The notes below the pieces were generated by a model. The model did no database searches. It had not been told where the DNA came from and saw only the letters and a program-made list of their open reading frames with translations. 64,000 bases of DNA from an uncultured virus (IMG/VR IMGVR_UViG_3300022748_000439) (lineage: Duplodnaviria > Heunggongvirae > Uroviricota > Caudoviricetes). Shown one piece after another: positions 45,818 through 50,266 of the stretch; positions within the stretch are counted from its first letter, which is position 1, and each line of letters starts with the position of its first letter. Where the stretch lies: the IMG/VR virus record IMGVR_UViG_3300022748_000439. One strand, given 5' to 3'. A program made the position numbers and the translations under genes.

Positions 45818-46411
45818 ATGGCCAATACTTTGCTTTTGAAGCGCAGCGCGGTCGCAGGGCGCGCGCCGGTGCTTGCGGACCTTGTCCTCGGCGAGCTTGC
45901 GGTCAACGTGACAGACGGAAAGCTCTATCTCAAGAAAAGCACGAGCGGCGTCGAGAGCATCGTCGATGTCACGGCTGGTGGCATGACCGATGCCGAACTC
46001 TTCGCCAAGGTGATGGCGCAGGATGGGCCTGGCTCGGGTCTCGATGCCGATCTGCTTGATGGGGCCCAGGCCAGCGCCTTTGCGCAGCTCGCTGGGGCGA
46101 CATTCACTGGCACGGTCACGGCGCCGAACTTCGTCTCTTCGTCCGACGCGCGGCTCAAATCCGACATCGCCCCGATCCCGGATGCGCTGGCCAAGGTGCA
46201 GGCGCTGACCGGCGTCACCTTTACCATGGCGGGCAGCGATGTACGGCAGATGGGCCTCATCGCGCAGGACGTGCAGGCGGTCGCGCCGGAGGCCGTGGTC
46301 GAAGCCGAAGGCGTGCTGCGCCTCGCCTACGGCAATCTCATCGGCCTTCTTGTCGAGGCCATCAAGGACCTCGCCCAAGAGGTCGATCAGCTGAAAAGGA
46401 CCACCCCATGA
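45818..46411 (+). CDS. Short fibre protein with C-terminal S74-like chaperone
   Basis: GSGLDADLLDG fibre motif; SDARLKS...GLIAQDV...YGNLIGLLVEAIK. Confidence 0.8.
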   Translation: MANTLLLKRSAVAGRAPVLADLVLGELAVNVTDGKLYLKKSTSGVESIVDVTAGGMTDAELFAKVMAQDGPGSGLDADLLDGAQASAFAQLAGATFTGTVTAPNFVSSSDARLKSDIAPIPDALAKVQALTGVTFTMAGSDVRQMGLIAQDVQAVAPEAVVEAEGVLRLAYGNLIGLLVEAIKDLAQEVDQLKRTTP

Positions 46412-47310
46412 TCGAGACCGGACTTTATGCCATCACCAATTGCGGCGTGCCGCGCCATTACGCGGTCGATGTCAAACCAGACTATGTCTCGATAGCCGTC
46501 TTCGAGTTCGCAGCACCCGGCACGGCAACTGGCATGGGCGGGGTCATGCTCTGGGCCGATCTCTTGGCGCATCTCGAGGCGCGGCCGGCCTTTGGCAATC
46601 AGGCCGGTTTTGTCGACCTCGTTCATAACGAATGCTTTGTTCCGGATCTTCCCGGCGCGCCGATGGGGGCGATTTACAAGGGCCGCTCCTGCCTCGTTGC
46701 CGGTGGCATGCGCGGACATGACGAGTTGGTCGATCATGCCCTGATCGACATGGCTGTCTGCTCCGACGGGCGACCGCTCTCTTGGCGGAACCGCTTTGCA
46801 CGATCTGCGCGGGAGAAGATCGCCACCTCGTTCCGGTACCGGGCACGCGAAGGCATCTCGAACGCGCTCGTCGTCTTTCTGCCGGTGGTGGTGCCCTTCG
46901 ATCAGGCCCGGATCGAGGTTCTCTGTCAGATCCCGCCGATCCTGCTGAACGGCACAGTGCAGGCAGGCGAAATTGACGATGCGACGATCCCGAAGGACGG
47001 GCTCTGGTACAAGCAGTTCTACTTCCACGCCTTGGGCCCAGAGGCGGCCACCGTGCCAGCCGGTGGGCGAGTGGATGTGCCGGTCGCGCTCAGATGGAAC
47101 GCGGACGGCTCCGCCTTTGCCCATGCCATCGCGCTGAAACTGGAAAGCGACGCGGGCTATCTGCCAAAACGCCGCCTCCTCACTTCTGCTGACGGCACCG
47201 GCAGCTTTGCCATCGAGGCCTCGGGGCTCGCCCCCGGCGACCGCATCACCGTCAAACTCAACACCGAGCATTACACTGCGATCGGCAAGATCGTGCTGGA
47301 GGTCACCTGA
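46408..47310 (+). CDS. Hypothetical protein with beta-sandwich-like C-terminus; first gene of the rSAM cassette
   Basis: ATGA/TGATG coupling on both sides; ESDAGYLPKRR segment. Confidence 0.75.
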   Translation: MIETGLYAITNCGVPRHYAVDVKPDYVSIAVFEFAAPGTATGMGGVMLWADLLAHLEARPAFGNQAGFVDLVHNECFVPDLPGAPMGAIYKGRSCLVAGGMRGHDELVDHALIDMAVCSDGRPLSWRNRFARSAREKIATSFRYRAREGISNALVVFLPVVVPFDQARIEVLCQIPPILLNGTVQAGEIDDATIPKDGLWYKQFYFHALGPEAATVPAGGRVDVPVALRWNADGSAFAHAIALKLESDAGYLPKRRLLTSADGTGSFAIEASGLAPGDRITVKLNTEHYTAIGKIVLEVT

Positions 47311-48050
47311 TGGAAATTCCGACCACGAGTGAGTTCCAAGTGATCTATCCAAGCTTCGTGCTGCACAAGCACTGGCAGATGCCCGCGGGCTTCAATGACC
47401 GCCTTTACGCGCTGGCGGCTGAGGATGCCGAGGCCCATCGCATCCAGCATGCGGGGAATGGCCGCAATGTGGGCGATACGACCAATCATCTCGGGCATCT
47501 GCGGCATAACTTCCTGATGGACCGGCAGGACCCGGCCCTCGCGGTACTGGCGCAAATGGTGGCCGCCGGCGTGCGGGAATATCTGCAGCTGGCCTATGGC
47601 TATGACCATACCGGCGAGATCGCCATGATGTCGGATACGTTCTGGCAGCGCCGGGCGTTGTACGAGAACGTAGGGATCAACACCCACACCCATATCCAGA
47701 GCGATATCGTCTGCACCTATTACCCGCGGGTGGTGCTGGATGCCGATTGTCCGGACACCTCGCTTCATCGCGGGGCGGTGCGGTTTTATGATCCGGCCAA
47801 TGTCGGCAAGCGGCTTTGGCCCTGTCGCAACCCGGACGCCTACACTGGCGGTTGGTATGCGGTCGAGCCCAAGGCGGGGTCCATGCTCGTCTTCGAGGGG
47901 CATCTTCCCCACGACAGCACGTTCTTCGCGGGGGAGGAGCGGATGTGCATTCCGGTCCTCTGTTCGCTCACCCTTCCGAATTCCCATTGCAAGGCCGGGC
48001 TCGCCGAGATCCTGGCCCATCAGGCACAAGGAGGCGGCCATGGCCTATAA
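47310..48050 (+). CDS. Putative 2OG-Fe(II) oxygenase (TIGR02466-like, HxH type)
   Basis: THTH..SDIVCTYY, VRFYDP, P..GSMLVFEGHLPH, ERMCI. Confidence 0.75.
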   Translation: MEIPTTSEFQVIYPSFVLHKHWQMPAGFNDRLYALAAEDAEAHRIQHAGNGRNVGDTTNHLGHLRHNFLMDRQDPALAVLAQMVAAGVREYLQLAYGYDHTGEIAMMSDTFWQRRALYENVGINTHTHIQSDIVCTYYPRVVLDADCPDTSLHRGAVRFYDPANVGKRLWPCRNPDAYTGGWYAVEPKAGSMLVFEGHLPHDSTFFAGEERMCIPVLCSLTLPNSHCKAGLAEILAHQAQGGGHGL

Positions 48051-48354: not shown

Positions 48355-48356
48355 AA

Positions 48357-48983
48357 ATGGAGGTTCGCAGCACGCGCCTGGAGCTCTGGCCGACCCGGGT
48401 CAGTTTTTTTGAAACGCCGGTGGACTGGCCGGTGAACCGGCAGCTGGCTGACGAGGCCATCGCCGCGGTGGGGAGCGGGGGCGCGCGGCTTTCGGCGGCC
48501 GAGCGGCGGGTGCGGGGCATCCTTGAGAGAACCGCGGCTGGCCAGTCCCTGAAATCCCATCTCTTTGCCTGTGCGCGGGCCGTGCTTGGTCCCTGGGCGC
48601 CCTATCTCGATCCCCACCATTGTGAAAACCGCGCCCTCATCATCGAGCCCGGTGGCTTCATCTCCACCCACAAGGACAGCCGCGAGGGGGACCTCACCTG
48701 CGTCCACTTCCTGACCGGCAGTGGGGCGGGGCAGCCGGTGAACTCTGTCGGCACGCCGCGCTTCGTGATCGAGGATCCGTCGCGCTACTTCGATGAGGGA
48801 CGGTTGCCGTTTGAGAGCCGCCATGGCTTCTCGGTCAATCCGCGCCCCGGGCTCTCGGTGGTCTTCCCCTCCCATACTCCCCACAACCAGCACCCCTATG
48901 AGGGGCGTGCTCGCCATGTGCAGGTGGTCGCGAACTTCCGCGTCAATCTGCCCGTGGCGATCGAGGAAAGGCTTTTTGACTGA
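48357..48983 (+). CDS. Second putative 2OG-Fe(II) oxygenase (HxD type)
   Basis: LWPT start, THKD...DLTCVHFL, IEDP, PRPG..VVFPSHTPH, VANF. Confidence 0.72.
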   Translation: MEVRSTRLELWPTRVSFFETPVDWPVNRQLADEAIAAVGSGGARLSAAERRVRGILERTAAGQSLKSHLFACARAVLGPWAPYLDPHHCENRALIIEPGGFISTHKDSREGDLTCVHFLTGSGAGQPVNSVGTPRFVIEDPSRYFDEGRLPFESRHGFSVNPRPGLSVVFPSHTPHNQHPYEGRARHVQVVANFRVNLPVAIEERLFD

Positions 48984-50266
48984 TGTGGTTTGATCTCACT
49001 CTGGAAGCACGGGATGGCAGCCGTCATCACGTCCGCTACAACCCACATACCTCGGACTGCGAGGGTCTGCCGCTGCCGGTCGAACCGGGAACCTTCGACC
49101 CGGTGCCGCGCGTGGCCAAAGACAAGCCCCTCGGCAAATCCCGCGCACCCCGCCTCCTGAAAATCCAGCTGGGGCTCTCGTGCAATTATGCCTGCAGCTA
49201 TTGCAGCCAGGCCTTCCAGATCGCCGATGCCACGGTCTCGAAGCTTGCGGATGTCGAGCGCTTCCTGACTGAACTTGACAGTTGGATCACGGACGCACCG
49301 GAAAAGATCGAACTCTGGGGTGGGGAGCCGTTTCTTTACTGGGCCAAGATCAAGCGGTTGGTGCCGGTGTTGGCGGCGCGGTTCCCGAAAGCGGCCTTCT
49401 CGATCATCACGAATGGATCATTGCTTGACCGGGAAAAGATCGACTTCATTGCCGCGCATGACATCGCGATCACGCTCTCGCATGACGGGCCGGGGCAGCC
49501 TTTGCGCGGGCCGGATCCGCTTGATGATCCGGATAAGCGGCGCTGGATTGAATCCTTGCTGGCCGAGCGACCGGACAAGACCGGGTTCAATGCGGTGCTG
49601 ACGCGCGACCATCACGATCTTCGGGCGCTGAAGGCCTGGTTTGCCGAAAAGGTCGGGCCGGACATCTTCGTGGGGCTTGAGGGCGTGGTGAATGTCTATG
49701 ATGCGGCGACGGCGCTTGGGACGGGGCGGTTTGAGCCCGCTGAGTTGAACAGCCTGACGCGGTCGATCTTCGAGGCGCTGGTCGAGGACCCGAACGCCTT
49801 TGGCCTCGGCGCGCGCATCGACGAATTCTACGCCTCGATCCAGCGCCGGCGGCCCATTGAGGCCCTTGGCCAGAAATGCGGGATGGATCGCGAAGATAGC
49901 ATTGCCGTCGATCTGCGCGGCAATGTCATGACTTGTCAGAACACCGGGGCCAAGGGCGTGCACAAGATTGGGCATGTCGCGGACTTCGAGGCCATCGCAC
50001 TCGACACCGCAACGCATTTTGCCTTCCGGCCCGAGTGCATGTCCTGCCCCGTCGTTCAGCTCTGCAAAGGGTCCTGCATGTTCCTTGAAGGCGTGTTCTT
50101 CGCGCAAAGCTGTGCCAATGAGTTTGCCTTCAATATGGGGGTCTTGATGGCGGCCGTCTGGCATTTGACAGGAATGGTGGTGGTGGGAGTGGACGTCACG
50201 GGCCGGGGTGGACCAACCGGAAGCGCCGGGCGCCTCGACGGTAGAGCTCACAGGTCCGGCCCGTGA
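48983..50266 (+). CDS. Radical SAM enzyme with SPASM domain
   Basis: CNYACSYC, WGGEP, ITNG, SHDG; C-terminal CGMD...CQN...CMSCPVVQLCKGSC...SC. Confidence 0.93.
   Translation: MWFDLTLEARDGSRHHVRYNPHTSDCEGLPLPVEPGTFDPVPRVAKDKPLGKSRAPRLLKIQLGLSCNYACSYCSQAFQIADATVSKLADVERFLTELDSWITDAPEKIELWGGEPFLYWAKIKRLVPVLAARFPKAAFSIITNGSLLDREKIDFIAAHDIAITLSHDGPGQPLRGPDPLDDPDKRRWIESLLAERPDKTGFNAVLTRDHHDLRALKAWFAEKVGPDIFVGLEGVVNVYDAATALGTGRFEPAELNSLTRSIFEALVEDPNAFGLGARIDEFYASIQRRRPIEALGQKCGMDREDSIAVDLRGNVMTCQNTGAKGVHKIGHVADFEAIALDTATHFAFRPECMSCPVVQLCKGSCMFLEGVFFAQSCANEFAFNMGVLMAAVWHLTGMVVVGVDVTGRGGPTGSAGRLDGRAHRSGP

Follow-up and report, generated by a model that had tools for sequence, protein, structure and literature searches.

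The window analysed here is the complete 64,000-nucleotide (nt) IMG/VR record IMGVR_UViG_3300022748_000439, which derives from an uncultured virus of the Caudoviricetes. Directly behind its tail fibre genes lies a cassette of five genes. These encode a radical S-adenosylmethionine (radical SAM)/SPASM enzyme, two predicted 2-oxoglutarate (2OG)-Fe(II) oxygenases, a 300-amino acid (aa) protein designated p300, and a 104-aa protein that ends in a run of alternating Asn and Cys residues. The features of the fibre region and the cassette are as follows.

44175..45815, + strand: tail fibre protein, 546 aa (best match among the tail-fibre families of PHROG, 5.5e-41)
45818..46411, + strand: short fibre protein, 197 aa, with an intramolecular chaperone domain of the S74 type at its C-terminus (PF13884, E 6.6e-16)
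46408..47310, + strand: p300, two-domain protein of 300 aa, first gene of the cassette
47310..48050, + strand: predicted 2OG-Fe(II) oxygenase 1, 246 aa (PF13759, phrog_81)
48040..48354, + strand: 104-aa Cys-run protein, the translation of which ends ...SFNCNCACRC
48328..48351, + strand: Asn/Cys run NCNCACRC, residues 97-104 of the translation, the proposed modification site
48357..48983, + strand: predicted 2OG-Fe(II) oxygenase 2, 208 aa counted from ATG (phrog_81, profile, alignment)
48983..50266, + strand: radical SAM/SPASM enzyme, 427 aa (PF04055, TIGR04085, phrog_1802)
49181..49204, + strand: CX3CX2C radical SAM cluster motif, C67/C71/C74, invariant in 26/26 sequences
49877..50113, + strand: SPASM region with seven invariant Cys residues, C299 to C377 (TIGR04085 and alignment)

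The genes of the cassette are tightly joined to each other and to the fibre genes. The gene of the S74 fibre is coupled to the p300 gene by an ATGA overlap, and TGATG overlaps link the p300 gene with the oxygenase 1 gene and the oxygenase 2 gene with the radical SAM gene. The gene of the 104-aa protein overlaps the oxygenase 1 gene by 11 nt and carries a strong Shine-Dalgarno site, AAGGAGG, 6 nt before its ATG; it is separated from the oxygenase 2 gene by a 2-nt gap. The GC content of the cassette is 0.62-0.64, compared with 0.61-0.67 in the structural genes, and it drops to 0.50-0.60 across most of the sequence beyond 50.3 kb. Since the cassette has the GC content of the structural genes and is followed, after 50.3 kb, by the fall in GC and by a giant gene on the opposite strand, it is the final block of the late (fibre) operon. 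The initial annotation, which was made from the sequence alone, had described five ORFs (open reading frames) with ATGA, TGATG and 2-nt junctions and a GC content matching that of the phage structural genes, as well as an HxH oxygenase, an HxD oxygenase and a 104-aa protein ending in NCNCACRC. All of this is borne out, including the coordinates of the ORFs and the residues read in the translations and in the alignment.

The radical SAM enzyme passes the Pfam model Radical_SAM (PF04055) with 38.3 bits at a cut-off of 29.5 and the SPASM domain model TIGR04085 with 31.6 bits at a cut-off of 27, and it belongs to the phage family phrog_1802 (5.6e-51). Its CNYACSYC motif comprises C67, C71 and C74, and the further Cys residues are C299, C318, C352, C355, C361, C365 and C377. 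All ten cluster Cys residues, which make up three motifs, are unchanged in 26 aligned family members; this confirms the motif and the seven Cys residues of the SPASM tail that had been noticed in the initial reading. The family alignment also reveals a conserved N-terminal extension of about 55 residues. Among the NCBIfam models no curated equivalog is reached, and the best scores lie five to sixteen times under the cut-offs; the nif11-type model gives 63.6 bits, which is far under its cut-off. The solved structures nearest to the family profile are 8vpo (4.3e-21), the anaerobic sulfatase-maturating enzyme (anSME) 4k37 (4.7e-15) and the thioether-forming CteB 5wgg (6.6e-15). Judged by this profile, the nearest solved relatives of the enzyme are SPASM enzymes that modify peptides or proteins.

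The neighbourhood of the enzyme was compared across its relatives. A scan of IMG/VR with an alignment of three enzymes gave at least 598 pattern matches, among which at least 534 relatives were confirmed. The best 80 of the at least 534 relatives, together with two phage records, form a viral set of 82 loci, which fall into 27 groups (referred to here as lineages) at 70% identity of the radical SAM protein. A run was counted as [N/D]CxCxC in an ORF on the strand of the radical SAM gene, and the opposite strand served as the control. Such a run is present on the radical SAM strand in 67 of the 82 loci and on the opposite strand in 4 of the 82; counted by lineage, the figures are 21/27 and 2/27. 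The result was replicated in prophages by an independent scan of bacterial genomes (335 matches, 242 confirmed), where the best 80 loci were analysed and the run was found in 55/80 on the radical SAM strand and in 9/80 on the opposite one. The pairing of enzyme and run is thus far beyond chance. The initial annotation had proposed to look for homologous radical SAM genes that commonly lack a Cys-rich ORF as evidence against its reading; what is found is that the run accompanies the enzyme in most lineages and again in the prophages. Thirteen of the 82 loci contain no alternating-Cys run of any kind on the radical SAM strand. Eight of them have less than about 1.8 kb of upstream sequence, and variant Cys tails are present in two of the thirteen, RSP15 and L029.

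The pairing is also kept in cultured phages of unrelated types. Full-length relatives of the enzyme with 38-40% identity were found by tblastn in the Achromobacter phages JWF and 2-1 and in the Ralstonia phage RSP15. The radical SAM gene of JWF is located two genes after the fibre gene gp28, in the product of which the Asn/Cys run NCNCDCNCNCSC leads directly into a Hint domain (PF05203, 3e-12). In RSP15 it is located three genes after ORF048, a 'side tail fiber' gene whose product ends in NTNCQCGN and retains N-x-N-C-x-C though the first Cys is lost.

The close relatives of the window itself, as identified in the bacterial-genome scan, are prophages of Rhodobacteraceae. The phage lineage of the window was delimited as 80 loci with a host-specificity protein at least 77% identical to that of the window. 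All five cassette genes are present in 8/8 of those loci that have at least 9.5 kb of sequence downstream of the host-specificity gene, and the shorter loci contain the genes that the extent of the contig allows. No natural loss of the cassette was found among the eight sufficiently long loci. The cassette is therefore fixed in this lineage and is not a moron. In some instances one bacterial genome contains the cassette in two or three separate places, with run variants that differ (L100/L101/L103 in one Thalassobacter, L088/L097 in one Thioclava), which suggests several related prophages per host. A second, shorter radical SAM gene, encoding about 300-370 aa without the N-terminal extension, was observed at L031:4193-5191, L034:4970-5968, L041:4103-5212 and L050:5001-5885.

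The 104-aa protein consists of a conserved N-terminal part of about 27 residues (MAYKVG...W.RI..KP), a variable middle and the C-terminal NCNCACRC. Small run proteins sharing this N-terminus are 50-111 aa long and occur in the lineage of the window and in eight others, and of 56 distinct proteins that begin in this way, 52 contain CxCxC. By its sequence the 104-aa protein belongs to a small family of its own and cannot itself be recognised as a fibre. The carriers of the run differ by lineage and include fibres with collagen repeats and proteins of tail-fibre PHROGs in addition to the small proteins with the 27-residue N-terminus. Seven of the 14 tested Cys-run proteins from other lineages match tail-fibre PHROGs, and one carrier of another lineage contains collagen repeats.

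The composition of the run is constrained. Among 110 distinct runs, four Cys residues are the commonest number (57/110) and three to seven the usual range. Asn precedes the first Cys in 95/110 runs, which results partly from the construction of the filter, and it lies between the first and the second Cys in 98/110, which does not. The run positions after the second Asn are occupied by N, A, D or R. The NCNCACRC of the window contains two NxxC units, N97..C100 and N99..C102. The position of the run within the protein is constrained as well. In the window protein the stop codon directly follows the run, with no Hint domain behind it. In 65/110 cases the run ends 0-2 residues from the stop, and in 24/110 it ends 3-13 residues from it. 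More than 60 residues follow the run in 16/110; at least six of these enter a Hint-type start, CF(P/A)xG, directly, and seven continue into a SKI(I/V)C(A/T) domain without a family match. A Hint domain is found behind the run in JWF gp28 and in the relatives L029, L040 and L051/53/54/62. Hint autocleavage would again leave the run as the mature C-terminus. Since the run is either terminal or placed right before a self-cleaving Hint domain, the end of the mature protein would be the run itself.

Several variants of this arrangement were observed. Tandem copies of the small protein, two or three in number, are present in the relatives L026, L030 and L070. At L029:1423-2575 there are three tandem genes with the N-terminal motif of the small proteins; two of them, encoding 57-58 aa, contain only one Cys each and lack a run, and in the third a period-3 pattern of Cys residues precedes the Hint domain. 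The run ends in ...C-R-D in the lineages of L031, L034 and L041/L043, instead of ...C-R-C or ...C-Y-C, and in ...CDCGDA in L050. A T4-like viral contig encodes at L045:3-518, about 5 kb upstream of its radical SAM gene, a run with 25 alternating Cys residues, most of it (KC)n. Genes resembling tryptophan halogenases lie between the two, and two sister lineages show no run in their available flanks. In groups 10 and 17 (L036:7296-8177, L048:7453-8352 and relatives) the Cys-rich protein is encoded downstream of the radical SAM gene. A domain of about 165 residues that starts with SKIICAKLYE and ends in a hydrophobic stretch follows the run in these proteins, and an Asp/Asn beta-hydroxylase gene (PF05118) is found in the neighbourhood.

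The usual gene order in the relatives is the Cys-run gene, p300, one or more optional oxygenases and the radical SAM gene. With iterated profiles, the p300 family was detected in 15/27 radical SAM lineages, which makes it the commonest companion after the Cys-run protein. It reaches no Pfam, NCBIfam or PHROG family. In the structural model (mean predicted local distance difference test, pLDDT, 87.4), residues 200-300 form an Ig-like domain of the intimin/invasin type with a Z score of about 10; for residues 1-200, the structure search of the model returned no convincing solved fold. The whole p300 fold matches only uncharacterised phage proteins, and p300 belongs to a phage-only family. Leads to Big_1/invasin proteins in the ESM Atlas, at 0.81, were under the trust level and were set aside.

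The oxygenase family was detected by the same procedure in 14/27 lineages, and its members may be described, on these profiles, as frequent but dispensable companions. Oxygenase 1 just passes PF13759 (2OG-FeII_Oxy_5; 27.7 bits, cut-off 27) and matches phrog_81 (3.1e-8). It contains H126-x-H128...H201 and R211. The structures nearest to its model (pLDDT 76.6) are 3bvc and 2rg4, two uncharacterised roseobacter proteins, followed by protein prolyl hydroxylases, with template-modelling (TM) scores of about 0.5. Oxygenase 2 contains H105-x-D107...H176 and is matched only by phrog_81 (6.4e-5) and by the profile built from the relatives. On this basis both are assigned to the 2OG-Fe(II) oxygenases. 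A site of three His residues, HxH...H, is a variant of the usual HxD/E...H and was observed in 26/30 aligned relatives including oxygenase 1; oxygenase 2 keeps HxD. Other 2OG families occur in some groups, namely PF13640 and, in the same gene block of one relative, the Asp/Asn beta-hydroxylase family PF05118 (1.6e-11). A relation between the presence of oxygenases and the Asn content of the run was considered and dropped, as Asn-rich runs occur both with and without oxygenases.

The closest published parallel to the arrangement of enzyme and Cys-rich protein is the CrpC/CrpA system of Methanococcus voltae, published in 2026, in which a SPASM enzyme introduces thioethers into a whole Cys-rich protein encoded adjacent to it (PMC13692751). 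As far as this report describes the system, it shares with the cassette a radical SAM/SPASM enzyme with three clusters, and it has ranthionine links in the Cys-rich C-terminal part of a protein encoded in the neighbourhood and a companion protein that raises the yield (PMC13692751). The 104-aa protein, likewise Cys-rich, is encoded two genes upstream of the radical SAM gene of the window. The two differ in that CrpC/CrpA is archaeal and cellular whereas the window system is viral, in the substrate motifs, which are C-x-x-Q/D in 17-residue repeats for Crp and an NCNC ladder in the window, and in the RRE (RiPP recognition element, where RiPP denotes a peptide made on the ribosome and modified after translation), which CrpC possesses (PMC13692751). 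The word phage is absent from the text of that paper (PMC13692751). A parallel to the sequence of the run is provided by NxxcB, whose described product has a thioether between Cys23 and the C-beta of Asn20 (PMC8326336). The Asn-x-x-Cys of its substrate NxxcA lies near the C-terminus, and the NCNCxC of the window can be read as overlapping NxxC units; NxxcA is, however, a short quorum-regulated peptide of Gram-positive streptococci with one cross-link, whereas the window has an alternating ladder on a phage protein (PMC8326336). PapB (Cys to Asp) and CteB also form thioethers from the Cys sulfur to a beta- or gamma-carbon, as summarised in the same report (PMC8326336). Like the window enzyme, the maturases of freyrasin (PapB) and SCIFF (CteB) are SPASM enzymes; they introduce several links into each peptide, in its Cys-rich C-terminal core, by bonding Cys sulfur to a beta- or gamma-carbon of Asp or Thr. 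Their substrates differ in being small Firmicutes peptides with another spacing (Cx3D), and the match to 5wgg reflects shared architecture only. The anSME are SPASM enzymes that act on the beta-hydrogen of Cys (or Ser) in a folded-protein substrate, and 4k37 lies at a similar profile distance, but neither a sulfatase nor a sulfatase motif is found near the radical SAM gene of the window, and the enzyme scores 35.3 bits against the anSME model TIGR03942 at a cut-off of 349.45. JWF gp30 is annotated as anSME in one record, a naming by similarity. Radical SAM cassettes have been noted in the host-recognition cluster of pelagimyophages as variable gene content (PMC7029224). They share with the cassette the location in a variable tail-fibre region, and the portion of that report bearing on them names no substrate, Cys run or function (PMC7029224). 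Full-text literature searches returned no description of radical SAM modification of phage fibres. The statement of the initial annotation that no characterised system has this layout thus stands for phages in the literature searched, and is to be qualified by CrpC/CrpA, a system from outside the phages, as far as it is described (PMC13692751).

We propose, with a probability of about 0.6, that the cassette is a protein-maturation module of the fibre operon in which the radical SAM enzyme acts on the C-terminal Asn/Cys ladder, most likely by forming NxxC thioethers from Cys to Asn. The ladder is regarded as the substrate because the enzyme is of the SPASM type that modifies peptides or proteins and the ladder is its one constant neighbour. 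Overlapping beta-thioethers from Asn to the Cys at position i+3 are favoured because of the near-fixed Asn three residues before the second and the third Cys, the N-x-N-C-x-C retained in RSP15 and the published thioether chemistry. The enzyme would abstract a hydrogen from the beta-carbon of Asn (Asp in some relatives), and a bond would then form between this carbon and the sulfur of the Cys that stands three residues downstream. In this way NCNCxC would be used as two overlapping NxxC units, and the product would be a short, rigid, thioether-stapled tip at the extreme C-terminus. The oxygenases, which resemble the PHD/P4H enzymes, probably hydroxylate the 104-aa protein, as their co-location with its gene suggests. 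The p300 protein probably serves to hold or present the substrate, or else pairs with it in the virion, and the conserved stretch of about 27 residues at the N-terminus of the 104-aa protein is probably what docks it to the fibre apparatus. The initial annotation had likewise proposed a maturation pathway for the Cys-rich protein. Its core is supported by the pairing of enzyme and run in 21/27 lineages, while the part assigned to the oxygenases is weakened by their dispensability (14/27).

A number of observations weigh against this proposal. For the 104-aa protein no family was found in Pfam, NCBIfam or PHROGs, the fibre families included, and it gives no tblastn match in 50,697 records of cultured phages; its location in the virion is a point that we infer, as is all of the chemistry. 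At three T4-like loci with full flanks (L049, L058 and L060; groups 18 and 23) no run is found within about 6 kb of the enzyme, L029 and L050 show period-3 Cys patterns, and the RSP15 tail contains only two Cys residues. The oxygenases and p300 are missing from about half of the lineages, and JWF gp29, which occupies the position of p300, has no BLASTP similarity to p300 or to either oxygenase. The models of the thioether-forming families score far under their cut-offs: PapB (NF047865) gives 62.2 bits at a cut-off of 340, mainly over residues 60-170, the SCIFF maturase (TIGR03974) 34.1 bits at 425, and the CrpC family (TIGR04463) 32 bits at 525. No RRE domain was detected on the enzyme or on its cassette partners with Pfam, NCBIfam or PHROGs. 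The best solved relative, 8vpo, appears to be a radical SAM cyclopropyl synthase that forms C-C bonds and not thioethers. The hosts of the bacterial-genome relatives are presumably mostly aerobic genera, which is awkward for an oxygen-sensitive enzyme.

The same enzyme-substrate pair might instead produce formylglycine, sactionine (C-alpha) links or C-C links, which would turn the ladder into a row of reactive aldehydes or give it another cross-link. The presence of 4k37 among the nearest solved relatives (4.7e-15) agrees with formylglycine and the apparent role of the top match 8vpo with C-C bonds, and it is Lys, not Asn, that alternates with the 25 Cys residues in the (KC)n run of L045. On the other hand, the TIGR03942 score is about a tenth of its cut-off, the 104-aa protein lacks the C/SxPxR context typical of sulfatases, and the Asn that is nearly fixed in two places within the run is best explained as a reaction partner, in the manner described for NxxcA. 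We consider another chemistry unlikely. A different possibility concerns the fate of the product, since the modified small protein might be a released RiPP-like peptide, such as a bacteriocin, a signal or a lysis helper, made late in infection. A substrate of about 100 aa with a leader-like conserved N-terminus, a variable middle and a Cys-rich end would suit this, and the two or three tandem copies in L026, L030 and L070 resemble RiPP precursor arrays. The cassette is, however, translationally coupled to a fibre gene and fixed in the structural operon of its lineage, the same run ends proteins of tail-fibre families elsewhere, and searches with Pfam, NCBIfam, PHROGs and PADLOC found no protease, transporter or immunity family in the cassette, just as the initial annotation had remarked. 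A released peptide is in our view improbable. The preference of the initial annotation for a virion appendage over an exported bacteriocin is supported by the fibre proteins of other lineages that end in the run, and remains without such a family match for the 104-aa protein of the window.

The ladder might also serve without any action of the enzyme on it, as a metal- or Fe-S-binding spine of a trimeric fibre tip, with the radical SAM enzyme acting elsewhere or merely co-occurring. Every second residue of a beta-strand points to the same side, so that the CxCxC of three chains could line a column of metal ions; the run is terminal, where fibre tips lie, and the tip of the T4 long fibre, with its HxH iron sites, offers an analogue. 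This would leave unexplained why a SPASM-type enzyme and a near-invariant Asn stand beside the run in 21/27 lineages, and why the run is carried by stand-alone proteins of 55-110 aa, and we regard a metal spine as quite improbable. Finally, the radical SAM enzyme and the oxygenases could have an auxiliary metabolic or an anti-defence role, with nucleotides, DNA or host metabolites as their targets, like viperins or 2OG nucleic-acid dioxygenases. The core of the enzyme (residues 66-168) indeed resembles viperins (NF038283, 53.5 bits; pVip, 3.3e-15), but the NF038283 score is under the cut-off of 180 and covers the shared core only, and neither the SPASM domain nor the pairing with a Cys run is a viperin feature. 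PADLOC identified no defence family in the cassette beyond this shared core, and the GC content, coupling and position of the cassette are those of structural genes. A role of this kind is highly improbable.

The proposed maturation of the ladder can be extended to the architecture of the fibre. With thioethers both between and within chains and with further hydroxylation, the ladder would become a covalently locked fibre tip resistant to proteases and redox changes, a 'chainmail' of the receptor-binding end produced by chemistry of the natural-product kind, and the module of Cys-run protein, p300 and radical SAM enzyme, with or without oxygenases, would be swapped among fibres of unrelated architecture. 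This extension is tentative and, taken as a whole, rather doubtful. The known substrates of radical SAM/SPASM cross-linking are small secreted peptides and, since 2026, a single archaeal protein, as the description of the latter has it (PMC13692751). If the proposal is correct, a virus would be cross-linking by enzymes the very apparatus with which it recognises its host, and this would be a new class of post-translational modification of virions. It would be widespread, extending to hundreds of lineages of phages and prophages, with Proteobacteria and Verrucomicrobia among the groups concerned. Consequences would follow for the stability of fibres, for host range and for phage engineering. 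A fibre might be inactive when it is expressed in the absence of its maturase. RiPP enzymology would also gain a large enzyme family, still untouched, whose substrate is repetitive and very simple.

Searches of the window proteins against profile libraries identify the surroundings of the cassette as a lambda-like prophage with the following further genes.

22810-24849: gpA-type terminase of the lambda-like prophage
Structural genes: lambda-family portal, S49 protease, E-type major capsid protein, tail tube protein and tape measure protein
38316-40877: Phage-tail_3 host-specificity protein
Lysis genes of the prophage: holin and peptidoglycan-binding lysin

Contigs of the metatranscriptome X17 cover positions 47630-47778, 48307-48529 and 48837-48987, each showing 0-6 differences; since finding a sequence in an RNA library is no proof that it is transcribed, these contigs were not counted. 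Other RNA-labelled runs that match the cassette probably represent DNA or relatives. A type I restriction-modification locus, complete with HsdR, HsdS, an AAA_13 ATPase and HsdM, was observed upstream of the prophage at 8403-15595 on the + strand, and a separate N6/N4 DNA methylase at 18061-19389. The giant gene right after the end of the prophage is an ORF of 3532 aa at 50628-61226 on the - strand. Its product is rich in Asp and Gly, contains GGxGxD-like repeats and resembles a giant RTX-type adhesin or secreted repeat protein, and the GC content of the gene is below that of the prophage over most of its length.

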